DNA from: Eledone cirrhosa
Taxonomy: Eukaryota
NCBI GenBank assembly: GCA_964016885.1
Contig: OZ024746.1
Span: 71,300,001-71,364,000, forward strand
Reading direction: 5' to 3'
Length of the DNA stretch: 64,000 nucleotides
The notes under the pieces were generated by a model. That model made no database searches. It had not been told where the DNA came from and was given only the letters and a program-made list of their open reading frames with translations. Shown in pieces: positions 1-58,383 of this stretch. Position 1 is the first letter of the stretch. Each line of letters begins with the position of its first letter. A program made the position numbers and the translations under genes.

Positions 1-3000
1 AACACGGAAGGTACACCTGGACTCGGAGGGACAACTGGTGGTTCTAGACGTCGGCAGTAGTGAAGGTGGAGCCTTCAGGCTGGTGGCAGCGTATGCCCCA
101 TCTGGGACACCGCGACCGGACTTCTTCCGACGCCTAGAGACTTTTCTGGGAACGTCTCGCTCTTTGCTTTTAGTGGGGGACTGAAAATGGTATCCTGGAT
201 GCACGTTGGGACTATGTAGGGGCATGTCCCGATAGAGGGGGGTGTAACAGCCTCAAACGGTTAATCGGCCGATTTGATCTGGCCGATAGATATCGACTAG
301 ATTTTCCGACTGTGCCACTGTGGGTGTGGACTAATCTCAGCGGAACATCTAGGTCGTACCTAGATAGGTTCCTAGTTAGAAATAAGGATAGGGACATATT
401 AAGCTGTCCACGAATGTTCATGGTTGACTATTCGGATCACAAGTTGGTGACCGGAGTGGTCAACCTTGATAGAACCCATAGACAAGGGCCCGGTTACTGG
501 AAGCTAAACTTGTCCTTACCGACAAACAAAGCTTACAGTAAGCGGATTAGCACTCTAGTTAAGCAGCGGTTGACGGGAGCAATTGTCAACAGCAGGTGGT
601 GGGGATCTCTGAAGAGAGAAATTAGAATAGAATCGATAGGTTTTAGTCAGGAATTAGCATCAGATAGGAATAGAACTGAAAGGGAATTGATAGATAGAGT
701 AGAAGAGGCGATTAGGAGTGGCAACGTGGCCGGCGTGCTGGCGTCAAGAACGGCCCTAGACCAGTTCTTTGACGCGAAGCACGAGGGCTGCATTGTCAGG
801 AGTAAAATACGTGCTCTGGGTAACGAGGGAGCCAAAGCTGTTAGAGTGAGAGAGGCAAAAAGTGGAAACAAGTCCACGATTCGGGCTTTGAAGGACCAGG
901 ATGGACGCGTGATCCTTGAACCTGAGCGGATGTGCGCGGCCTTTCAACGGCGCTTTGCACGACTGTTCGGGAGGGGCGGCGGGCCGGGTGGGGCCATGGA
1001 TTTCGGTCCATACCTCGTCGGTCTGCCGCGGCTCTCGGACGGGGAGGCGAAGTCCTGCGAAAGGTCGATTTCAACCGCTGAGATAGAGGAAGCGCTGAGC
1101 CAATGCGACAAACGCAAATCTCCCGGTCTACCATACGAACTTTATGTAGCGATGCCGGACTTGTTCTCCAATCTCCTCGAGGCGGTCTACTGCAACTGGC
1201 AACAGAACGGGAGAATTCTCAGTTCTGTGACCAAGGGCGTAGTCACGCTGGTGAGGAAAGACGAGAAGAAGGGGGATGACATAGATAACTTCGGGCCCAT
1301 AACTCTGCTAAATACAGAGTTAAAGATTTTGGCCAAGGTGTTAGCGAAGAGGTTGGCGCTTGTCGTCGGGAACCTGGTGGGAGAAGCGCAGACATGCGCA
1401 ATCCCGCCCAGGTCCATACACGACAACCTCCACCTCATGCGATAAATCGTAGAGAGGGTAGGGAACGAACCCGGCTTTGGTGGGGCCCTGATCAACTTGG
1501 ATCAATCTAAGGCGTTCGATAGGGTCGACCATCGGTACTTGGATGCGGTGCTCGCAGCGGCAGGCTTCGGACCCGTTTTCAGGGGCTGGATTGCTGCAAT
1601 GCACAGCAGCAACACCTGTTCGAGGGTCAAGGTGAACGGCTACCTCTCGGAGTCGTTCCAAATCGCGCGATCCATCCGACAGGGATGCCCTCTCTCATCC
1701 CTTCTGTATGTGCTGGCTCTGGAGCCACTACTGTGGAAGTTGGAGCTGTTGCAGGGAATCCCCTTGGAACTGGGATTGCGGAAAGCGGTGTCGGCCTACG
1801 CCGATGACGTGACAGTAATGGTGTCGTGCGCCTCAGAAATCGGGCAGATCGTCACTTTCCTGGAGGAATACGAAAGGTTTACAGGAACCAAGCTGAACCG
1901 GGACAAGTCCGTCGGTTTGCAGCTCGGAACGTGGAGAGGCAAACCGATGTCCTCCGACGGCGTCGTCGGACGCTGGACAGAGGGACCGGTGAAGCTGCTC
2001 GGGGTCTGGTTCGGACCGGACCTCCAGATGGAGAAAAACTGGGACGAGGTAACGGGCAGGATGTTTGCACTCGCCCAGAAGTGGGCCGAGTGCAAACTAT
2101 CCCTGAAAAGTCGAGCGGAGGTGGCGAACACTTATATAGCGTCCGTCATCTACTACCGCTTCACCGTCGTGCCTTGCCCAGCAAAAACGCTCGCCAAAAT
2201 GGAGCTCGTGCTCTTCCGATTTCTTTGGTGAGAAGATCCATTTGCTGTCAACACCTTTCGAACGGAGAGCTGGGGATGCCGTGACTGACGATGCGTAGAC
2301 ACGCATTAAGGTTACGGCACCTCCAGGTATTCCTCACCGGTCAGCCGGTGTGGGCCCCTTTTGTGAGGCGAGCCTTTCCGAGACTCGTCTCATTACCGAA
2401 CTGCAATCCTGGATCAAGCAAAGACCGAGAAAAATGGGCGACTGGCACATTGAATGTGCCCAGGTGCTCACGGCCCTCTGGCAAGCGGATCCGGCAATCA
2501 GTGGAGACTCAACCTCAACATTCTATAGAGGGTTGGTGCGCAGCAAGTGCGACGACGCTCTCGGAGAGGATCTGGGCATGGAGGAAGACGATCTAGCCAG
2601 TCTGTTCGGTAGGACGTTTGGCCCGGGACCGATGGACAACTTCCAAAAGTCCCTGGCATGGAAGTGCTACCGAGGAGCTCTACCGGTTCGGGACAAGCTC
2701 TACAGACACGGGCGCCCGGGTAGGGACCCCTCGAAGAAGATCTGTCCGAGATGCGTGCGTGACGAGGAAACCGTCGCGCACGCATTCGTACACTGTCCGG
2801 GCGTTGCTAACCTGTGGGGCTATGTGGAACGACTACTGTCGCGGGTGGGACCAATCCGGTTGACCACCGAGTACATTGTCATGATCAAACCGCCTCCCCC
2901 TTTCAAAAACGAAGGAGAGGCGGTTTTCCTCTGTGTGATAGCTATGGCGAAAGAGGTTGTATGGTGGATGAGGTTGAAAGGTCAGACACCTTTCTCTCCG

Positions 3001-3378
3001 GCCAACAACTGGTACTTTTTTTCAAGTACCATTTTAGAAGAAGGATCAGAATGGAGAGAGAGGTGCTCAACCCCAGCAAGTTTTATGAAAGGTGGGTGAG
3101 AGCGGCGAGAATGGCCCGAGTGTATGGGCCTTCTCTCTATATCAGCCTGTAGGTGAGAGAGGAGAAGAAAGAGGAGAGGAAGGGAGCACCCGCTGTTTGT
3201 ACTCCTGAGGAGGAGGGTTGCACATTTTTTTCGGGGGTGTGTGCGACCCATTGAGGACTTCGATTGTTGAATTTTATTTGTTATATGTTTTTACACGTCC
3301 TTTGAAATGTATGTAAACCCCCCCCCCTTGTATTTGTCCCAATCTTTGATGCCCTGGTGGCAAATAAATAGAAAGTTA
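1..3378 (+). mobile_element. Degenerate Tx1/L1-group non-LTR retrotransposon (ORF2 APE-RT-zinc finger, 3' UTR), 5' part outside the window
   Basis: Endonuclease C-terminus (SYLDRFLV, YSDHKLV, GPGYWKLN), RT motifs (KSPG, PITLLNTELKILAK, DQSKAFDRVDH, SIRQGCPLS, AYADDV at ~1797-1808) and CPRC..ETVAHAFVHC zinc finger. Split by stops and frameshifts into ORFs 312-1445, 1497-2231, 2350-3099 and 2814-3152. Ends caaataaatagaaagtta followed by (TATC)-like repeats. Confidence 0.93.
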
Positions 3379-7261: not shown

Positions 7262-10200
7262 CTTGATGGTGGCTGGCAGGGTAGCTGGTTGGATAGCTGG
7301 CTGGCTTGGTGGCTGGCTTGGTGGCTGGCAGGGTAGCTGGTTGGATAGCTGGCTGGCTTGGTGGCTGGCAGGGTAGCTGGTTGGATAGCTGGCTGGCTTG
7401 GTGGCTGGCTTGGTGGCTGGCAGGGTTGATGGCTGGATGGTTGGCTGGCTTGGTGGCTGGCAGGGTAGATGGTTGGATAGCTGGCTGGCTTGGTGGCTGG
7501 CTTGGTGGCTGGCAGGGTAGATGGTTGGATAGCTGGCTGGCTTGGTGGCTGGCAGGGTAGATGGCTGGATGGTTGGCTGGCTTGGTGGCTGGCAGGGTAG
7601 ATGGTTGGATAGCTGGCTGGCTTGGTGGCTGGCAGGGTAGATGGCTGGATGGCTGGCCGGGTTGGTGGCTGGCAGGGTAGATGGCTGGATAGCTGGCTGG
7701 CTTGGTGGCTGGCAGGGTAGATGGTTGGATAGCTGGCTGGCTTGGTGGCTGGCAGGGTAGATGGTTGGATAGCTGGCTGGCTTGGTGGCTGGCAGGGTAG
7801 ATGGCTGGATAGCTGGCTGGCTTGGTGGCTGGCAGGGTAGCTGGTTGGATAGCTGGCTGGCTTGGTGGCTGGCAGGGTAGATGGCTGGATGGCTGGCCGG
7901 GTTGGTGGCTGGCAGGGTAGATGGCTGGATAGCTGGCTGGCTTGGTGGCTGGCAGGGTAGATGGTTGGATAGCTGGCTGGCTTGGTGGCTGGCAGGGTAG
8001 ATGGTTGGATAGCTGGCTGGCTTGGTGGCTGGCAGGGTAGATGGCTGGATAGCTGGCTGGCTTGGTGGCTGGCAGGGTAGCTGGTTGGATAGCTGGCTGG
8101 CTTGGTGGCTGGCAGGGTAGATGGCTGGATGGCTGGCCGGGTTGGTGGCTGGCAGGGTAGATGTCTGGATAGCTGGCTGGCTTGGTGGCTGGCAGGGTAG
8201 ATGGTTGGATAGCTGGCTGGCTTGGTGGCTGGCAGGGTAGATGGTTGGATAGCTGGCTGGCTTGGTGGCTGGCAGGGTAGATGGTTGGATAGCTGGCTGG
8301 CTTGGTGGCTGGCAGGGTAGATGGTTGGATAGCTGGCTGGCTTGGTGGCTGGCAGGGTAGATGGTTGGATAGCTGGCTGGCTTGGTGGCTGGCTTGGTGG
8401 CTGGCAGGGTAGATGGTTGGATAGCTGGCTGGCTTGGTGGCTGGCTTGGTGGCTGGCAGGGTAGCTGGTTGGATAGCTGGCTGGCTTGGTGGCTGGCTTG
8501 GTGGCTGGCAGGGTAGATGGTTGGATAGCTGGCTGGCTTGGTGGCTGGCTTGGTGGCTGGCAGGGTAGATGGTTGGATAGCTGGCTGGCTTGGTGGCTGG
8601 CTTGGTGGCTGGCAGGGTAGATGGTTGGATAGCTGGCTGGCTTGGTGGCTGGCAGGGTAGATGGCTGGATAGCTGGCTGGCTTGGTGGCTGGCAGGGTAG
8701 CTGGTTGGATAGCTGGCTGGCTTGGTGGCTGGCTTGGTGGCTGGCAGGGTAGATGGTTGGATAGCTGGCTGGCTTGGTGGCTGGCTTGGTGGCTGGCAGG
8801 GTAGATGGTTGGATAGCTGGCTGGCTTGGTGGCTGGCAGGGTAGATGGTTGGATAGCTGGCTGGCTTGGTGGCTGGCAGGGTAGCTGGTTGGATAGCTGG
8901 CTGGCTTGGTGGCTGGCTTGGTGCCTGGCAGAGTACTGGTTGGATAGCTGGCTGGCTTGGCGGCTGGATTGGTGGCTGGCAGGGTAGATGGTTGGATAGC
9001 TGGCTGGCTTGGTGGCTGGCAGGGTAGCTGGTTGGATAGCTGGCTGGCTTGGTGGCTGGCAGGGTAGCTGGTTGGATAGCTGGCTGGCTTGGTGGCTGGC
9101 TTGGTGCCTGGCAGAGTACTGGTTGGATAGCTGGCTGGCTTGGCGGCTGGATTGGTGGCTGGCAGGGTAGATGGTTGGATAGCTGGCTGGCTTTGTGGCT
9201 GGCAGGGTAGCTGGTTGGATAGCTGGCTGGCTTGGTGGCTGGCAGGGTGGATGGTTGGATAGCTGGCTGGCTTGGTGGCTGGCAGGGTAGCTGGTTGGAT
9301 AGCTGGCTGGCTTGGTGGCTGGCTTGGTGGCTGGCTTGGTGGCTGGCAGGGTAGATGGTTGGATAGCTGGCTGGCTTGGTGGCTGGCAGGGTAGATGGTT
9401 GGATAGCTGGCTGGCTTGGTGGCTGGCAGGGTAGCTGGTTGGATAGCTGGCTGGCTTGGTGGCTGGCAGGGTAGCTGGTTGGATAGCTGGCTGGCTTTGT
9501 GGCTGGCTTGGTGGCTGGCAGGGTAGATGGCTGGCTTGGTGGCTGGCAGGGTAGATGGCTGGATAGCTGGCTGGCTTGGTGGCTGGCTTGGTGGCTGGCA
9601 GGGTAGATGGTTGGATAGCTGGCTGGCTTTGTGGCTGGCTTGGTGGCTGGCAGGGTACTGGTTGGATAGCTGGCTGGCTTGGTGGCTGGCTTGGTGGCTG
9701 GCAGGGTACTGGTTGGATAGCTGGCTGGCTTGGTGGCTGGCTTGGTGGCTGGCAGGGTACTGGTTGGATAGCTGGCTGGCTTGGTGGCTGGCTTGGTGGC
9801 TGGCAGGGTAGATGGTTGGATAGCTGGCTGGCTTGGTGGCTGGCAGGGTAGATGGTTGGATAGCTGGCTGGCTTTGTGGCTGGCTTGGTGGCTGGCAGGG
9901 TACTGGTTGGATAGCTGGCTGGCTTGGTGGCTGGCTTGGTGGCTGGCAGGGTACTGGTTGGATAGCTGGCTGGCTTGGTGGCTGGCTTGGTGGCTGGCAG
10001 GGTACTGGTTGGATAGCTGGCTGGCTTGGTGGCTGGCTTGGTGGCTGGCAGGGTAGATGGCTGGATAGCTGGCTGGATAGCTGGCTGGCTTGGTGGCTGG
10101 CAGGGTAGATGGCTGGATAGCTGGCTGGCTTGGTGGCTGGCAGGGTAGATGGCTGGATGGCTGGCTGGATTTGTGGCTGGCTTGGTGGCTGGCAGGGTAG

Positions 10201-10498
10201 ATGGCTGGATGGATGGCTGGATTTGTGGCTGGCTTGGTGGCTGGCAGGGTAGATGGCTGGATGGCTGGCTGGATTTGTGGATGGCTTGGTGGCTGGCAGG
10301 GTATATGGTTGGATAGCTGGTTGGCTTGGTGGCTGGCAGGGTAGATGGTTGGATGGCTGGCTGGCTTTGTGGCTGGCTTGGTGGCTGGCAGGGTAGATGG
10401 CTGGAAAGCTGGCTGGCTTGGTGGCTGGCAGGGTAGATGGCTGGATAGCTGGCTGGCTTGGTGGCTGGCAGGGTAGATGGCTGGAAAGCTGGCTGGCT
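7262..10498. repeat. 40-bp GC-rich minisatellite (ggctggcttggtggctggcagggtagatggttggatagct) with 12-bp (ggcttggtggct) insertion variants
   Basis: Direct tandem periodicity of 40/52 bp over ~3.2 kb. Produces the spurious 1101-aa ORF. Confidence 0.97.
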
Positions 10499-14335: not shown

Positions 14336-15098
14336 GCATGGTATACTTGGTAAAAAGTCGCATGGTATACTTGGTAAAAAGTCGCATGGTATACTTGGTA
14401 AAAAGTCGCATGGCATACTTGGTAAAAAGTCGCATGGTATACTTGGTAAAAAGTCGCATGGCATACTTGGTAAAAAGTCGCATGGTATACTTGGTAAAAA
14501 GTCGCATGGCATACTTGGTAAAAAGTCGCATGGTATACTTGGTAAAAAGTCGCATGGCATACTTGGTAAAAAGTCGCATGGTATACTTAGTAAAAAGTCG
14601 CATGGTATACTTGGTAAAAAGTCGCATGGTATACTTAGTAAAAAGTCGCATGGTATACTTGGTAAAAAGTCGCATGGTATACTTGGTAAAAAGTCGCATG
14701 GTATACTTGGTAAAAAGTCGCATGGTATACTTAGTAAAAAGTCGCATGGTATACTTGGTAAAAAGTCGCATGGTATACTTGGTAAAAAGTCGCATGGTAT
14801 ACTTGGTAAAAAGTCGCATGGTATACTTAGTAAAAAGTCGCATGGTATACTTGGTAAAAAGTCGCATGGTATACTTGGTAAAAAGTCGCATGGTATACTT
14901 AGTAAAAAGTCGCATGGTATACTTGGTAAAAAGTCGCATGGTATACTTAGTAAAAAGTCGCATGGTATACTTGGTAAAAAGTCGCATGGTATACTTGGTA
15001 AAAAGTCGCATGGTATACTTGGTAAAAAGTTGCATGGTATACTTGGTAAAAAGTCGCATGGTATACTTAGTAAAAAGTCGCATGGCATACTTGGTAAA
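14336..15098. repeat. 24-bp minisatellite (gcatggtatacttggtaaaaagtc), ~32 copies
   Basis: Near-perfect 24-bp period. Source of the 8-aa-repeat ORFs in several frames. Confidence 0.97.
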
Positions 15099-15269
15099 AA
15101 AAATGCGAAACTTAAACTATTCTAAGATAGAAGAAGAAGATAGAAGAAGAAGAAGAAGAAGAAGAAGAAGAAGAAGAAGAAGAAGAAGAAGAAGAAGAAG
15201 AAGAAGACAGAGGAGGTGAACAGAAAAATAAAAGGAATTATAATTTGTGTGTATCTATACCCTCCTAAT

Positions 15270-19711: not shown

Positions 19712-21275
19712 AGCAATATACCCACACAAACAACGGTAATATACCCACACAAACAACTGCAATATACCCACACAAACAACGGTAATATACCCACACAAAC
19801 AACTGCAATATACCCACACAAACAACTGCAATATACCCACACAAACAACTGCAATATACCCACACAAACAACTGCAATACACCCACACAAACAACGGTAA
19901 TATACCCACACAAACAACTGCAATATAACCACACAAACAACTGCAATATACCCACACAACAACTGCAATATACCCACACAAACAACGGTAATATACCCAC
20001 ACAAACAACTGCAATATACCCACACAAACAACTGCAATATACCCACACAAACAACGGTAATATACCCACACAAACAATGCCAATATACCCACACAAACAA
20101 CGGCAATATACCCACACAAACAACGGTAATATACCCAAACAAACAACGGTAATATACCCACACAAACAACGGTAATATACCCACACAAAAAACGGCAATA
20201 TACCCACAGAAACAACTGCAATATACCCACACAAACAACTGCAATATACCCACACAAACAACTGCAATATACCCACACAAACAACAGTAATATACCCACA
20301 CAAACAACGGCAATATACCCAAACAAACAACGGTAATATACCCACACAAACAACGGTAATATACCCACACAAAAAACGGCAATATACCCACACTAACAAC
20401 TGCAATATACCCACACAAACAACGGCAATATACCCACACAAACAATGCCAATATACCCACACAAACAACGGCAATATACCCACACAAACAATGGTAATAT
20501 ACCCACACAAACAACGGCAATATACCCACACAAACAACGGCAATATACACACACAAACAACGGCAATATACCCACACAATCAACGGCAATATACCCACAC
20601 AAACAACGGCAATATACACACACAAACAACGGCAATATACCCACACAAACAACGGCAATATACCCACACCAAAAACGGCAATATACCCACACAAACAACT
20701 GCAATATACACACACAAACAACAGTAATATACCCACACAAACAACGGTAATATACCCACACAAAAAACGGCAATATACCCACACAAACAACTGCAATATA
20801 CGCACACAAACAACTGCAATATACCCACACAAACAACTGCAATATACCCACACAAAAAACGGCAATATACCCACACAAACAACTGCAATATACCCACACA
20901 AACAACGGTAATATACCCACACAAACAATGCCAATATACCCACACAAACAACGGTAATATACCCACACAAACAACGGCAATATACCTACACAAACAATGG
21001 TAATATAACCACACAAACAATGCCAATATACCCACACAAACAACTGCAATATACCCACACAAACAACTGCAATATACCCACACAAACAACGGCAATATAC
21101 CCACACAAACAACTGCAATATACCCACACAAACAACGGCAATATACCTACACAAACAATGGTAATATACCCACACAAACAATGGTAATATACCCAAACAA
21201 ACAACGGAAATACACCCACACAAACAATGGCAATATACCTACACAAACAACTGTAATATACCCACACAAATAGCG
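19712..21275. repeat. 24-bp minisatellite (gcaatatacccacacaaacaac[gt]), ~65 copies
   Basis: 24-bp period with variant units. Confidence 0.97.
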
Positions 21276-21386
21276 GCCATTTCCCCACCCATTTACCGGA
21301 AATATTCCCATCCATCCATCGGCAATATTCCCAACGGTTTACCAGTAATATTCTCACAATGTATCACCCCCAAAATCGGCAACATT

Positions 21387-22820: not shown

Positions 22821-23005
22821 TGTTTCTACTTTAGGCACAAGGCCAGCAATTACCCAGTGCATTACTGGTACTTTATTTTATCGACCCCGTAAGGATGAAA
22901 GGCAAAGTCAACCTCGGCGGGATTTGAACTTAGATCGTAAAGGGACGTAACTATGCTGGAAAGCATAGCGTCCGACCCTCTACCGATACTGCCAATCCAC
23001 CACCC
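22818..23005 (-). mobile_element. Full-length SINE family A copy in (AAT)n
   Basis: Complete head-core-tail on the minus strand, flanked by AAT repeats. Confidence 0.85.
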
Positions 23006-23006
23006 T

Positions 23007-23049
<43 letters not shown>

Positions 23050-23053
<4 letters not shown>

Positions 23054-23861
23054 CTGAACTTAGAGATCCACAGACATGGAACTGGTTGAGAAGAGGAGAC
23101 CTCAAAAAGGCTACAGAAGGAATGCTAATGGCTACGCAGGAGCAGGCCCTCAAAACGAAGTGGTTGAAGCACCATATCTACAAGGAGGAGGCTAGCCCAC
23201 TGTGCAGGATCTGTGGAGAGAGAGAGGAGACTGTGGCTCACATTGTGTCCGAGTGTAAACACCTAGCCCAGACCCACTATAAGGGCTGGAGACACGATGT
23301 GATGGGCAGGGTGATCCACTGGCACCTGTGCAAAGTAAACAATCTACCACATTCTGAGAAATGGTATGAGCATAGGCCAGAGGCGGTGATAGAGAACAGT
23401 CAGGTGAAGGTGCTGTGGGATTTTAGGATACAGACGGACAAAAAACTGGAACACAATAGACCTGACCTGGTGGTTGTGGACAAAGAAAAAAGATCGTGCC
23501 TGATTGTGGATGTGGCCTGCCCGTTCGACACGAGAGTGCAAGAGAAGGAGAGGGAGAAAATTAACCGATACCAGGACCTAAAGTGGGAGGTGAAAAGGAT
23601 TTGGAACTGCCATGAAGTCAAAGTGATCCCGATTGTCATAGGCGCACTGGGGACTATCTCCAAAGGTTTCCAGGGATGGTTAAAGAAAATCGGCCCCTTC
23701 ACGCTTTTTGGAACACTTCAAAAGGCATGCTTGCTTGGAACAGCAAGAACCCTCCGATACGTCCTGAATATCTGAGGCTGCAGGTAGTGGCTTGATATTC
23801 AATCCAACGGACTTTCCAGTTAACCAACATCAATGACTGAGATTCAAGGAATAACGGTGAC
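23050..23861 (+). mobile_element. 5'-truncated R4/Dong-type non-LTR element (CCHC + restriction-like endonuclease) inserted in (TAA)n
   Basis: ORF 23086-23775: CRICGEREETVAHIVSEC, RHD, RPDLVVVD, DVACPFD, KINRYQDL. (AAT)n on both flanks matches the known Dong target preference. Confidence 0.88.
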
Positions 23862-23902
<41 letters not shown>

Positions 23903-23906
<4 letters not shown>

Positions 23907-24020
23907 TGTTTCTAGTTTTGGCACCAGGCCAGCAATTACCCAGTACATTACTGGTACTTTATTTTATCGACCCCGTAAGGATGAAAGGCAAAGTTAACCT
24001 CGGCGGGATTTGAACTCAGA
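23903..24020 (-). mobile_element. SINE family A 3' part
   Basis: Core and tail match the other copies. Confidence 0.8.
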
Positions 24021-24030
24021 ATAATAATAA

Positions 24031-24394
24031 AAAGATTGTGCCTGATTGTGGATGTGGCCTGCCCATTTGACACGAGAGTGCGAGAAAAGGAGAGGGAGAA
24101 AATTAACCGATACCAGGATTTAAAGTGGGAGTTAAAAAGGATTTGGAACTGCCATGATATCAAAGTCGTTCCGATTGTCATAGGTGCACTAGGTACTATC
24201 TCAAAAAGTTTCCAAGGATGGTTAAAGAAAATTGGCCCCGCCACGCTTTTTGGAACGCTTCAAAAGGCATGCTTTCTGGGAACAGCAAGAACCCTCCGAT
24301 ACGTCCTGAATATCTGAGGCTGCAGGTAGTGGCTTGATATTCATTTCAACAAACTTTCCAGTTAACTAACATCAATGACTGAGACTCAAAGAAC
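24031..24394 (+). mobile_element. Second, shorter 5'-truncated copy of the same R4/Dong-type element
   Basis: ORF 24036-24317 is a near copy of the C-terminus of 23086-23775, with the same 3' UTR and an (AAT)n tail. Confidence 0.88.
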
Positions 24395-26941: not shown

Positions 26942-27122
26942 AGTTTTAATATAGATGAGATTCTACAGGACTAGAACTGTTTCATTCTTTAGAAATCATC
27001 AGGAATCTGGGTATCAAAAAATAATACCATATAAATACCATATTTATTTTTTGATACCCAGATTCCTGATGATTTCTAAAGAATGAAACAGTTCTAGTCC
27101 TGTAGAATCTCATCTATATTAA

Positions 27123-43048: not shown

Positions 43049-43080
<32 letters not shown>

Positions 43081-43082
<2 letters not shown>

Positions 43083-43821
43083 CAATATGTTGAAAAGGTA
43101 ACACACCAGAGAGAGATATACAGTGTGTTATCAATAAAACAGGGAAAAAACCACCAGTGTATGGAATCTATAACCTATGAAAGGCAGACTATAGACACGA
43201 TAATTAAAAATATAAATTAAAGCGTAAATAAATACCTTTATAACTATATATCACACGTACAAATCCAAAGATCCAAATCCAAAGATATGTTTCACCAATA
43301 ATTTGTTGAAAGAAATGGGTTAGCCTCGGTTCATCAGCGTGTGTAAGGCTATACATTTCAGACAACACTAAGAGAATTTTAAAATTGACTGCACAGCTAC
43401 ACGGGGGAGAGAGAAGTCACAGCGTGTTTAAGGGCAGTGAACCAGTGGCTTCTGAGGGACGAACTGCTAGAAAGGGCAGCCCAAAGCCACTCAGAGAAGT
43501 GTGCTCAACCAAACAGAGATAGGAAAGACTGTTATTAGGAGCGAAATATCACGATAAATTAACGGAGGCATAGGCCCTCGCTATTCCCTGTAAATAATGT
43601 GCTCAAAAGAGAAGACATCCTGAGCTCTTTAAAATACAATATGTTGAAAAGGTAACACACCAGAGAGAGATATACAGTGCGTTTTATTGATAACGCACTG
43701 TATATCTCTCTCTGGTGTGTTACCTTTTCAACATATTGTATTTTAAAGAGCTCAGGATTTCTTCTCCTTTGAGCACACTATTTACAGGGAATAACGAGGG
43801 CCTATGCCTCCGTTAATTTAT

Positions 43822-43829
<8 letters not shown>
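43081..43829. mobile_element. TA-embedded element with terminal redundancy (period 554 bp) and a ~138-bp foldback
   Basis: tacaatatgttgaaaaggtaacacaccagagagagatatacagtg at 43081 and 43635. Hairpin 43546-43829. Minus strand has CTGATGA-accg...tggt-GAAA-cata-TC at ~43284-43337 without clear helix I. Confidence 0.7.
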
Positions 43830-43908
<79 letters not shown>

Positions 43909-44026
43909 TATATATATAATATATAATATATAATATATATAATATATAATATATATATATTAATATATATATAATATATATATATATTAATATATATATA
44001 TATGTATATATATAATATATATATAT

Positions 44027-47000
44027 ATTTGAATAAATGCTCTGAAATAGCGATATATATGTGAATATAGACATAGAATATTCGAAAATATTCTGTATGT
44101 TTATAATAAACATTTTGAAGACCTAATCGCTATAGAATAGAATACGTCACGTATTACAATTAGATTCTCGATAAAAGCAAGGGAAGTAATCTACGCGTTT
44201 CATTCTCGTTAGAAATCATCAGGACTACATATCCAGTGCTTTTATCGAGAATGACACAGCTAGAGACTTATAGAATACTTAGCTGTGTACAGGAACTGGT
44301 TTGAAAGAGCGGTTGCCGGTCCGGCAGAAATTAGAAATTTGAATAAATGCTCTGAAATAGCGATATATATGTGAATATAGACATAGAATATTCGAAAATA
44401 TTCTGTATGTTTATAATAAACATTTTGAAGACCTAATCGCTATAGAATAGAATACGTCACGTATTACAATTAGATTCTCGATAAAAGCAAGGGAAGTAAT
44501 CTACGCGTTTCATTCTCGTTAGAAATCATCAGGACTACATATCCAGTGCTTTTATCGAGAATGACACAGCTAGAGACTTATAGAATACTTAGCTGTGTAC
44601 AGGAACTGGTTTGAAAGAGCGGTTGCCGGTCCGGCAGAAATTAGAAATTTGAATAAATGCTCTGAAATAGCGATATATATGTGAATATAGACATAGAATA
44701 TTCGAAAATATTCTGTATGTTTATAATAAACATTTTGAAGACCTAATCGCTATAGAATAGAATACGTCACGTATTACAATTAGATTCTCGATAAAAGCAA
44801 GGGAAGTAATCTACGCGTTTCATTCTCGTTAGAAATCATCAGGACTACATATCCAGTGCTTTTATCGAGAATGACACAGCTAGAGACTTATAGAATACTT
44901 AGCTGTGTACAGGAACTGGTTTGAAAGAGCGGTTGCCGGTCCGGCAGAAATTAGAAATTTGAATAAATGCTCTGAAATAGCGATATATATGTGAATATAG
45001 ACATAGAATATTCGAAAATATTCTGTATGTTTATAATAAACATTTTGAAGACCTAATCGCTATAGAATAGAATACGTCACGTATTACAATTAGATTCTCG
45101 ATAAAAGCAAGGGAAGTAATCTACGCGTTTCATTCTCGTTAGAAATCATCAGGACTACATATCCAGTGCTTTTATCGAGAATGACACAGCTAGAGACTTA
45201 TAGAATACTTAGCTGTGTACAGGAACTGGTTTGAAAGAGCGGTTGCCGGTCCGGCAGAAATTAGAAATTTGAATAAATGCTCTGAAATAGCGATATATAT
45301 GTGAATATAGACATAGAATATTCGAAAATATTCTGTATGTTTATAATTTCTAATTTCTGCCGGACCGGCAACCGCTCTTTCAAACCAGTTCCTGTACACA
45401 GCTAAGTATTCTATAAGTCTCTAGCTGTGTCATTCTCGATAAAAGCACTGGATATGTAGTCCTGATGATTTCTAACGAGAATGAAACGCGTAGATTACTT
45501 CCCTTGCTTTTATCGAGAATCTAATTGTAATACGTGACGTATTCTATTCTATAGCGATTAGGTCTTCAAAATGTTTATTATAAACATACAGAATATTTTC
45601 GAATATTCTATGTCTATATTCACATATATATCGCTATTTCAGAGCATTTATTCAAATTTCTAATTTCTGCCGGACCGGCAACCGCTCTTTCAAACCAGTT
45701 CCTGTACACAGCTAAGTATTCTATAAGTCTCTAGCTGTGTCATTCTCGATAAAAGCACTGGATATGTAGTCCTGATGATTTCTAACGAGAATGAAACGCG
45801 TAGATTACTTCCCTTGCTTTTATCGAGAATCTAATTGTAATACGTGACGTATTCTATTCTATAGCGATTAGGTCTTCAAAATGTTTATTATAAACATACA
45901 GAATATTTTCGAATATTCTATGTCTATATTCACATATATATCGCTATTTCAGAGCATTTATTCAAATTTCTAATTTCTGCCGGACCGGCAACCGCTCTTT
46001 CAAACCAGTTCCTGTACACAGCTAAGTATTCTATAAGTCTCTAGCTGTGTCATTCTCGATAAAAGCACTGGATATGTAGTCCTGATGATTTCTAACGAGA
46101 ATGAAACGCGTAGATTACTTCCCTTGCTTTTATCGAGAATCTAATTGTAATACGTGACGTATTCTATTCTATAGCGATTAGGTCTTCAAAATGTTTATTA
46201 TAAACATACAGAATATTTTCGAATATTCTATGTCTATATTCACATATATATCGCTATTTCAGAGCATTTATTCAAATTTCTAATTTCTGCCGGACCGGCA
46301 ACCGCTCTTTCAAACCAGTTCCTGTACACAGCTAAGTATTCTATAAGTCTCTAGCTGTGTCATTCTCGATAAAAGCACTGGATATGTAGTCCTGATGATT
46401 TCTAACGAGAATGAAACGCGTAGATTACTTCCCTTGCTTTTATCGAGAATCTAATTGTAATACGTGACGTATTCTATTCTATAGCGATTAGGTCTTCAAA
46501 ATGTTTATTATAAACATACAGAATATTTTCGAATATTCTATGTCTATATTCACATATATATCGCTATTTCAGAGCATTTATTCAAATTTCTAATTTCTGC
46601 CGGACCGGCAACCGCTCTTTCAAACCAGTTCCTGTACACAGCTAAGTATTCTATAAGTCTCTAGCTGTGTCATTCTCGATAAAAGCACTGGATATGTAGT
46701 CCTGATGATTTCTAACGAGAATGAAACGCGTAGATTACTTCCCTTGCTTTTATCGAGAATCTAATTGTAATACGTGACGTATTCTATTCTATAGCGATTA
46801 GGTCTTCAAAATGTTTATTATAAACATACAGAATATTTTCGAATATTCTATGTCTATATTCACATATATATCGCTATTTCAGAGCATTTATTCAAATTTC
46901 TAATTTCTGCCGGACCGGCAACCGCTCTTTCAAACCAGTTCCTGTACACAGCTAAGTATTCTATAAGTCTCTAGCTGTGTCATTCTCGATAAAAGCACTG

Positions 47001-48411
47001 GATATGTAGTCCTGATGATTTCTAACGAGAATGAAACGCGTAGATTACTTCCCTTGCTTTTATCGAGAATCTAATTGTAATACGTGACGTATTCTATTCT
47101 ATAGCGATTAGGTCTTCAAAATGTTTATTATAAACATACAGAATATTTTCGAATATTCTATGTCTATATTCACATATATATCGCTATTTCAGAGCATTTA
47201 TTCAAATTTCTAATTTCTGCCGGACCGGCAACCGCTCTTTCAAACCAGTTCCTGTACACAGCTAAGTATTCTATAAGTCTCTAGCTGTGTCATTCTCGAT
47301 AAAAGCACTGGATATGTAGTCCTGATGATTTCTAACGAGAATGAAACGCGTAGATTACTTCCCTTGCTTTTATCGAGAATCTAATTGTAATACGTGACGT
47401 ATTCTATTCTATAGCGATTAGGTCTTCAAAATGTTTATTATAAACATACAGAATATTTTCGAATATTCTATGTCTATATTCACATATATATCGCTATTTC
47501 AGAGCATTTATTCAAATTTCTAATTTCTGCCGGACCGGCAACCGCTCTTTCAAACCAGTTCCTGTACACAGCTAAGTATTCTATAAGTCTCTAGCTGTGT
47601 CATTCTCGATAAAAGCACTGGATATGTAGTCCTGATGATTTCTAACGAGAATGAAACGCGTAGATTACTTCCCTTGCTTTTATCGAGAATCTAATTGTAA
47701 TACGTGACGTATTCTATTCTATAGCGATTAGGTCTTCAAAATGTTTATTATAAACATACAGAATATTTTCGAATATTCTATGTCTATATTCACATATATA
47801 TCGCTATTTCAGAGCATTTATTCAAATTTCTAATTTCTGCCGGACCGGCAACCGCTCTTTCAAACCAGTTCCTGTACACAGCTAAGTATTCTATAAGTCT
47901 CTAGCTGTGTCATTCTCGATAAAAGCACTGGATATGTAGTCCTGATGATTTCTAACGAGAATGAAACGCGTAGATTACTTCCCTTGCTTTTATCGAGAAT
48001 CTAATTGTAATACGTGACGTATTCTATTCTATAGCGATTAGGTCTTCAAAATGTTTATTATAAACATACAGAATATTTTCGAATATTCTATGTCTATATT
48101 CACATATATATCGCTATTTCAGAGCATTTATTCAAATTTCTAATTTCTGCCGGACCGGCAACCGCTCTTTCAAACCAGTTCCTGTACACAGCTAAGTATT
48201 CTATAAGTCTCTAGCTGTGTCATTCTCGATAAAAGCACTGGATATGTAGTCCTGATGATTTCTAACGAGAATGAAACGCGTAGATTACTTCCCTTGCTTT
48301 TATCGAGAATCTAATTGTAATACGTGACGTATTCTATTCTATAGCGATTAGGTCTTCAAAATGTTTATTATAAACATACAGAATATTTTCGAATATTCTA
48401 TGTCTATATTC

Positions 48412-48412
<1 letters not shown>
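44027..48412. mobile_element. Retrozyme-like tandem array of 310-bp hammerhead units (~4.25 inverted + ~9.9 direct) within (TA)n
   Basis: Period 310 (gaataaatgc at 44031, 44341, 44651, 44961, 45271), with an orientation switch at ~45346. CTGATGA on + at 45462+310n (n=0-9) and on - at 44216, 44526, 44836 and 45146. Confidence 0.9.
45432..45520 (+). ncRNA. Representative type I minimal hammerhead ribozyme of the 310-bp unit
   Basis: attctcgataaaagca/tgcttttatcgagaat 16-bp distal helix I, internal loop, gtagtc/gattac proximal helix I, CTGATGA (45462-68), helix II ttct-aacg-agaa, GAAA (45483-86), palindromic CGCG helix III, cleavage after GUA (45492). Confidence 0.88.
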
Positions 48413-48480
<68 letters not shown>

Positions 48481-48491
48481 ATATATATATA

Positions 48492-48569
<78 letters not shown>

Positions 48570-51749: not shown

Positions 51750-51785
51750 TTTCAACGTTTCGGACAAAAGTCCTTCATCAGGAAA
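51750..51785 (-). ncRNA. Minimal Penelope-type hammerhead
   Basis: Minus strand: tttc-CTGATGA-a-ggac tttt gtcc-GAA-ACGT-T-gaaa, with palindromic ACGT helix III and a GUU site. Lies in a ~160-bp island (51671-51830) between microsatellites. Degenerate relative at 58701-58736. Confidence 0.72.
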
Positions 51786-51829
51786 GTTCGGATAGAGGAC
51801 GAACAGGATCTCCGAGAGGGAGTAAGGAG

Positions 51830-58227: not shown

Positions 58228-58383
58228 ATGGAAAAACAATATTTAGGAACCTCCTTAAAAAACATACCAATACCTTCTAAGGATGACTTCTTACTCCTTA
58301 TGATTCAAAAAACTAATAATTTTATCAGAAGGGTTAGATGGAGAGCCTACCATTTCGATAGAAAATCTAAACAAGCAGATCGG

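Follow-up and report, generated by a model that had tools for sequence, protein, structure and literature searches.

We describe a tandemly repeated, ribozyme-bearing element in a 64,000-nucleotide stretch of the Eledone cirrhosa genome (contig OZ024746.1, positions 71,300,001 to 71,364,000; hereafter the window, whose own coordinates are used throughout). The element spans 44027-48412, with a (TA)n tract on either side, and consists of 310-bp units that each carry a hammerhead ribozyme. It is very probably a non-autonomous Penelope-like element (PLE) of the kind known as non-LTR (long terminal repeat) retrozymes. An exact 310-bp period without a single mismatch runs through two blocks, 44027-45347 and 45345-48412, and the 4.26 units on the left repeat, in reverse complement, the sequence of the 9.9 on the right, the two arms meeting head to head at a common AAT (45345-45347). 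These inverted arms refute the single-direction tandem array of ~14.2 units described in an earlier note on this DNA, whose exact 310-bp period, non-coding unit and (TA)n flanks were confirmed by periodicity, open reading frame (ORF) and flank checks. All 12 full units measured from anchor to anchor are identical, and their GC content is 34%. The unit has no coding capacity, its longest stop-free stretch being 59 codons and its longest Met-started one 30 codons, and neither in it nor between the arms is there an ORF joining reverse transcriptase (RT) and GIY-YIG, the feature of an autonomous PLE. Both flanks of the locus are (TA)n, in which a target-site duplication would not stand out.

A descriptor of the type I hammerhead matched all 14 copies in the array (10 on the plus strand and 4 on the minus strand), nothing else in the 64 kb and, among 5,000 dinucleotide-shuffled versions of the unit, none. 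The earlier claim that each unit holds a single type I hammerhead is borne out in its details: the predicted cut after GUA at 45492, the CGCG loop, a helix I of 6 bp and a distal stem of 16 bp. The predicted fold of the monomer has a z score of -4.65, equalled by none of 100 shuffles, and forms helix I and the 16-bp distal stem. A second proposed structure, tgccgg-a-ccggca, is indeed a hairpin but has a different shape, folding as 5 bp with a 3-nt loop. Helix III amounts to one base pair and the CGCG loop. According to the model, its closure in the monomer costs ~5 kcal/mol and two ACGCGU strands pair at -7.5 kcal/mol, values which together fit the dimer-type hammerheads of PMC4209133 and PMC7229834. 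Rfam, to which the earlier note had looked for a check, gave no match at gathering score in the window, and two units searched at E up to 10 gave six weak matches, none of them from hammerhead families. We read this miss as a limit of the Rfam models, because the descriptor result and the covariation described below support a hammerhead. A minimal PLE-type hammerhead core from a different family lies at 51750-51790 (-) of the window.

Judged by covariation with older sister subfamilies, the ribozyme is kept as a structure. A tail motif common to these subfamilies has 6,712 matches in the genome, against one for its control, and the copies, spaced at ~310-325 bp and bounded by the same two end sites, are mostly shorter than two units as seen here. 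We aligned 11 sequences, three from the family and eight from the sister subfamilies, the eight being all the sister monomers that passed the filter. Both sides have changed in 18 of 28 pairs, and 89% of paired cells can pair, compared with 35-48% in slid controls. The covariation score was reached by none of 500 shuffles, a control that ignores relatedness; the structure itself came from the window copy, and further pair types show no excess (30, against 33.8 when shuffled). In 6 of the 11 sequences the core pair C3-G8 is replaced by U3-A8, a switch known in PLE hammerheads (PMC4209133). The sister subfamilies were seen at L072:4873-5225, L078-L107, L109 and L204 among the extracted loci; they have the same 3' hairpin, tail and two ends as the young family and different hammerheads, with a longer helix III, a GUC cut triplet and often a U3-A8 core. 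A splice-donor-like GTAAGT follows the ribozyme in the sister subfamilies and not in the young family. Another short non-coding element, a head-to-head palindrome in (TA)n, occurs at 26996-27100 of the window, at L154:5130-5330 and at L091. Its helix II is almost the same as that of the young family, with a match of 74% over unit bases 60-139, and the ribozyme of the young family may have been swapped in from it.

The way in which the arrays are inserted was studied in 80 loci, comprising the window, 17 loci that hold the first 100 hammerhead matches, 58 long-end matches from a consecutive region of C1, two loci picked for a variant and two others. The C1 loci contain one long end by selection; the short partner end was not selected. 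Head-to-head pairs, 72 in all, are present in 69 of the 80 loci, and the outer ends of 68 pairs are one at unit base ~274 (short) and one at ~309 (long). No pair has two ends alike, one has another arrangement, and three are cut by the edge of the extracted sequence. Of the 11 loci without a pair, two are cut by such an edge and two lie at N gaps. Among the loci chosen by the hammerhead alone, 13 of 17 show short/long-end pairs. Nearly all outer ends run into TA (134 of 137, against 11% of random window positions), as do 65 of 67 short ends, which were unselected for target. Endonuclease-bearing PLEs produce inverted, 5'-truncated copies with a 30-40 bp tail at one end and a bias for (TA)n (PMC8557442, PMC3846280), and a PLE protein from Anolis nicks AT-rich DNA on both strands and extends each of them, starting reverse transcription at two internal RNA sites that bound the tail (PMC11167929). 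The inversion of our arrays, together with their 35-nt tail at one end, is thus the footprint known from endonuclease-bearing PLEs. The suggestion of the earlier note that the family borrows a Penelope RT gains support from the inversion and the tail, both of which the note had missed, and a PLE protein is the presumed enzyme.

The inner ends, where the two arms meet, are distributed non-uniformly round the unit (p 0.003), and 12 of the 72 junctions have overlaps of 15-48 bases. Only 6 of 140 inner ends fall at the hammerhead cut site, where 9.5 would be expected, and this lack of enrichment argues that synthesis runs through the cut site. In the LINE-1 model of twin priming, synthesis would collide at the second primer; we rejected it for these arrays, as the inner ends are not clustered near bases 274-309.

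Many ORFs with RT and GIY-YIG are present in the genome. We scored 150 of its 10,596 GIY-YIG candidates and drew 50 PLE loci from those. Two PLEs of the genome, at L138:1809-4622 (-) and L140:1775-5062 (+), have uninterrupted RT and GIY-YIG ORFs (938 and 1,096 codons from stop to stop) and would be candidates to screen as the autonomous partner, though the ends seen are not shared. A PLE ORF beside L066 was rejected as partner, its terminal repeat being different. A profile search of the 0.99 Mb analysed gave no ORF-linked match to the 3' region of the family, in a sample far too small for exclusion. The window itself contains, at 58228-58380 (+), a short ORF start interrupted by (TA)n, without a Pfam match, which we take to resemble a PLE N-terminus.

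The family is large and young. Its hammerhead-core pattern has 18,796 matches in the 3.0-Gb genome and none for the reversed control, and the first 100 matches listed are all from the 310-bp family. Exact junctions of the long end with (TA)n number 1,053, a minimum count of insertion ends, and a short-end pattern has 1,247 matches, part of which are internal units of one haplotype. From the core and junction counts, we infer 1,500-3,000 insertions. Copies are spread over many contigs. A lack of dispersed copies, which the earlier note had named among the signs that would refute it, is thus clearly contradicted by the counts of cores and junctions and by this spread, and its description of the family as young agrees with a divergence inside arrays of ~5.6e-4 substitutions per site. 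Six public runs from four studies, the kind of run not being on record and none of them listed as RNA, hold 76-85% of the unit's words in near-identical sequence. The unit with the majority base at position 306 is present in runs X1, X2, X3 and X6, labelled as four organisms (A-D), for which related hosts, traces of host DNA or transfer would all be compatible explanations. In each of these four runs there is a joint that leads back by 310 bases, and one 340-nt looped contig is present in X1 and X2; we used neither as evidence for circles, because the kind of run is unrecorded and a tandem array equally gives such a loop.

Fixed changes between arrays define 37 haplotypes in the 80 loci, and in almost all pairs both arms carry the same haplotype. 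Within arrays, 121 substitutions are singletons and 14 are found in more than one unit, in 215 kb, and several of these 14 stem from two insertions in one locus. The window array is marked by 306A, which is in every unit of both arms, also at the long end, and in no other array of the assembly. Its 14 matches in 3.0 Gb are 13 internal junctions of the window array, from both arms, and one lone unit of another haplotype. Lone 306A, 263G or 232T units were rejected as donors, two being on other haplotypes and one an incomplete unit at an inner end; chance alone should produce a few lone units of this sort. The lengths of the arms fit exponential distributions with means of 3.7 and 4.9 units (Kolmogorov-Smirnov p 0.19 and 0.16, with fitted means) and are mildly correlated between the two arms (rho 0.35). 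Some arrays are mosaic: L169 switches haplotype within an arm, L169 and L204 contain blocks of adjacent units with a common variant, and in one arm of L160 two variants recur at 7-unit spacing, which suggests local block duplication. On the hammerhead strand, 9 of 35 distinct fixed changes are A>G, compared with 8 of 115 singletons (Fisher p 0.005, post hoc). The change 110A>G is found repeatedly, in several different backgrounds; when rare variants are counted by themselves, A>G and T>C stand at 6 to 2, which is not significant (p 0.15). We treat this excess as a lead only, to A-to-I editing of the template RNA or to tolerance of G.U pairs in stems.

We lean, by a little more than even weight, towards the following cycle as a whole, including a single monomer, probably circular, that is reverse-transcribed many times over. 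An array would be transcribed, and neighbouring hammerheads would pair through the palindromic ACGCGU of helix III and cut after GUA, releasing 310-nt monomers, which may be circularised by a host ligase, by analogy with known retrozymes; the structure that this step uses is supported by its covariation. The RT/GIY-YIG protein of an autonomous PLE would then bind the 3' hairpin region and cut both strands of (TA)n, and each strand would prime one cDNA, the two starting at unit bases ~274 and ~309, in keeping with the observed ends, orientation and target. Each cDNA would be copied from one and the same monomer again and again, the simplest way being to roll round a circle, up to a variable stop, and the two cDNA ends would be joined, often by short microhomology, to give head-to-head arrays with the junctions that we observe. 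A single monomer copied repeatedly would be the simplest account of haplotype uniformity, exponential arms and inner ends, and a circle model proposed in PMC7229834 predicts such an array pattern. The fuller statement, that these insertions record rolling-circle reverse transcription in an animal genome, with two cDNAs begun 35 nt apart on one 310-nt circular RNA, a mirrored multimer made from one molecule, and RNA changes (possibly A-to-I edits) written into every unit, is a tentative proposal to which we give somewhat less than an even chance.

A number of observations weigh against this cycle. In the window haplotype the first pair of helix II is U.U, where other arrays have A-U. The Anolis PLE in vitro uses mostly uncleaved RNA and does not need its own hammerhead (PMC11167929), and one of nine Xenopus retrozyme dimers was cleaved in vitro (bioRxiv 10.64898/2026.07.22.740005). 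The 50 PLE loci and the 0.99 Mb analysed yielded no autonomous PLE with the same 3' region. About 12 of the 80 arrays seemed, within the sample, to carry a private fixed change; only one of four such variants checked held genome-wide, and the other three are in 2, 4 and at least 9 arrays, the last of them with 232 units and one arm of ~34 units. Long homogeneous arms therefore exist and are possible linear parents. In L196 (C1:136719000-136726300), the two outer units of both arms are of one haplotype and the inner units of another, and in L177 one variant is mirrored in the outermost units of both arms. Both patterns would be easier to obtain from a linear mixed template or by later gene conversion, and the switch in L196 could reflect a mixed linear template, a template switch, or a broken inverted repeat repaired from another array. 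Part of the singletons are probably sequencing errors, which inflate the singleton excess, and the assembly shows one haplotype, so parent arrays may be absent from it. Taken with the haplotype data, the shared variants mean that each haplotype must at least have been founded by growth from one unit, and that such growth is not provable for every insertion.

These points bear most directly on the idea that the same PLE machinery usually copies a long, uncleaved linear transcript of an existing arm, with growth from a single unit being rare and due to template jumping or to duplication within the locus. Such transcripts could come from arms of at least 22 and of ~34 units, three of the four checked variants are common to several arrays, the mirrored unit patterns of L196 and L177 are as expected, uncleaved RNA is the main in vitro substrate of the Anolis PLE (PMC11167929), and read-through of the cut site fits equally well. 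We consider this account a serious rival but the less likely one: each of the 37 haplotypes still grew from one mutated unit to whole arrays, the assembly holds no parent array for the 14-unit array of the window or for the largest 263G and 232T arrays, mirrored variants are seen in 2 loci where ~35 would be expected (an upper bound, with all singletons inherited and both arms starting at the same unit), and the hammerhead is kept, by covariation.

If the PLE inserted only short inverted copies of one or two units, the arms could have lengthened at the DNA level by slippage or unequal exchange. Local amplification has been proposed for retrozymes (bioRxiv 10.64898/2026.07.22.740005), and the 7-unit spacing in L160, the adjacent-unit blocks in L169 and L204 and the mild correlation of arm lengths would agree with it. 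Gradual lengthening, however, predicts many partly shared variants, but multi-unit substitutions number 14 and singletons 121; great length is found even in the youngest arrays, whereas the older sister copies are mostly below two units; and both arms would have to expand separately without mutation, all of which makes this explanation improbable. It is more improbable still that the second arm is a self-primed, fold-back copy of the first cDNA, as opposed to a further cDNA primed at the target. For palindromic PLE junctions, self-priming is an existing proposal (PMC3846280), and the overlaps in 12 of the 72 junctions and the non-uniform inner ends would suit it, yet a short-end arm made by fold-back cannot be the longer arm, and it is the longer one in 24 of 67 pairs. 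Finally, we see next to no chance that the array is a local satellite, or an expansion made by the assembly, whose likeness to a ribozyme is accidental. Polishing of the assembly might in theory yield perfectly identical units, and Rfam does not recognise the motif, but as a general explanation this is refuted by the 18,796 cores, the 1,053 end junctions and the array-specific haplotypes, and the covariation and the near-identical sequence in six public runs from four studies also speak against it.

Table 1. Coordinates of the retrozyme array and its parts in the window.
Feature	Position	Strand	Description and basis
Left (TA)n target microsatellite	43824..44026	.	Sequence
Left arm, 4.26 units	44027..45347	-	Hammerhead sense minus; runs from unit base 309 at its long, tailed outer end to ~229 at the inner end
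35-nt tail, unit bases 275-309	44027..44061	-	At one array end only; between two putative reverse-transcription start sites; tail concept from PMC8557442, PMC11167929
Four type I hammerheads	44164-44252, 44474-44562, 44784-44872, 45094-45182	-	Cores start at 44222, 44532, 44842, 45152; descriptor
Head-to-head inversion junction, 3-bp common AAT	45345..45347	.	Sequence
Right arm, 9.9 units	45345..48412	+	Hammerhead sense plus; outer end at unit base 274 (short)
Reference unit, 310 bp	45349..45658	+	Unit base 1 = 45349; sequence
First of ten plus-strand hammerheads	45432..45520	+	Then every 310 bp to 48222-48310; descriptor, fold
Hammerhead parts, core	45432..45520	+	CUGAUGA 45462-45468, helix II 45469-45482, GAAA 45483-45486, CGCG loop
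Hammerhead parts, stems and cut	45432..45520	+	Distal stem of 16 bp, helix I of 6 bp; cleavage predicted at 45492/45493
3' cis region, UUCG-capped hairpin and tail	45551..45657	+	Kept in older sister subfamilies; putative recognition/priming element for PLE protein
Unit base 306	45654	+	A in all units of both arms, C in family majority
Right (TA)n target microsatellite	48413..48567	.	Sequence

Other repeats in the window belong to different elements. A repeated, inverted fragment adjoins the left (TA)n flank (43080-43130 and 43630-43822), further tandem arrays with periods of 40, 24 and 23 bp lie at 7270-10498, 14336-15100 and 19713-21288, and broken non-LTR retrotransposon ORFs lie at 174-3099 (+) and 22969-24317 (+), with PF00078 at E 4.6e-17 and a weak PF13966.

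The family combines the sequence-level features of metazoan non-LTR retrozymes (a low-GC, non-coding tandem unit of 170-400 nt, one intact type I hammerhead, dispersed multicopy occurrence) with the structural features of non-autonomous endonuclease-bearing PLEs (head-to-head inversion, a tail of 30-40 bp at one end, a (TA)n target). Described metazoan retrozymes likewise have ~300-bp non-coding tandem units of GC below 50% with a type I hammerhead in each (PMC7229834; bioRxiv 10.64898/2026.07.22.740005), and occur as dispersed multimers in genomes that also contain PLEs. In axolotl, HHR_Amex1 has, like our unit, a one-base-pair helix III with a palindromic tetraloop, and HHR_Amex2 has, like the window haplotype, U.U at the base of helix II (PMC7229834). 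Unlike the described retrozymes, the 310-bp family is nearly always found as paired arrays, head to head within (TA)n, whose 35-nt tail is fixed. Expression, cleavage and circles have been shown for the described elements and are predictions for the 310-bp family. We found no report of the inversion-plus-tail architecture or of array-clonal haplotypes for retrozymes in a search that left out most subscription papers and the Repbase and Dfam entries, and a model figure in the supplement of PMC7229834 may bear on this point; nor did the listing of a literature search contain anything on cephalopod retrozymes.

With the endonuclease-bearing PLEs (Penelope/Poseidon, Neptune and Naiad) the family shares the inverted 5'-truncated copy, the 30-40 bp tail, the (TA)n or AT-rich target and a hammerhead in the repeat (PMC8557442, PMC11167929, PMC3846280). 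It differs from them in having no ORF, so that the whole element is a unit resembling the pseudo-long terminal repeat (pLTR), up to 30 or more per arm, and in its canonical hammerhead with an extended helix I in place of the minimal PLE form. The non-autonomous Chlamys PLEs of green algae, such as MRC1, lack canonical hammerheads (PMC8557442, PMC9977147) and share 3' sequence with a known autonomous partner, in contrast to the 310-bp family, for which none was found among the 50 PLE loci. An origin of retrozymes from PLEs has already been argued (bioRxiv 10.64898/2026.07.22.740005), and PLEs have been suggested as their mobilisers from co-occurrence and pLTR similarity, the mobilising enzyme and the circular template of animal retrozymes being stated as open questions (bioRxiv 10.64898/2026.07.22.740005; PMC7229834). 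The family contributes ~5.8 Mb of long inverted repeats (18,796 x 310 bp, ~0.2% of the assembly), which could be a source of double-stranded RNA and fragile sites. Here the PLE insertion footprint is seen directly on a large number of retrozyme arrays, whose two priming sites are fixed and whose haplotypes can be traced. Since both the 310-nt substrate and the target are defined, and there are candidate partner proteins with which to decide between a circular and a linear template, the family offers an unusually clean system for learning how animal retrozymes move.

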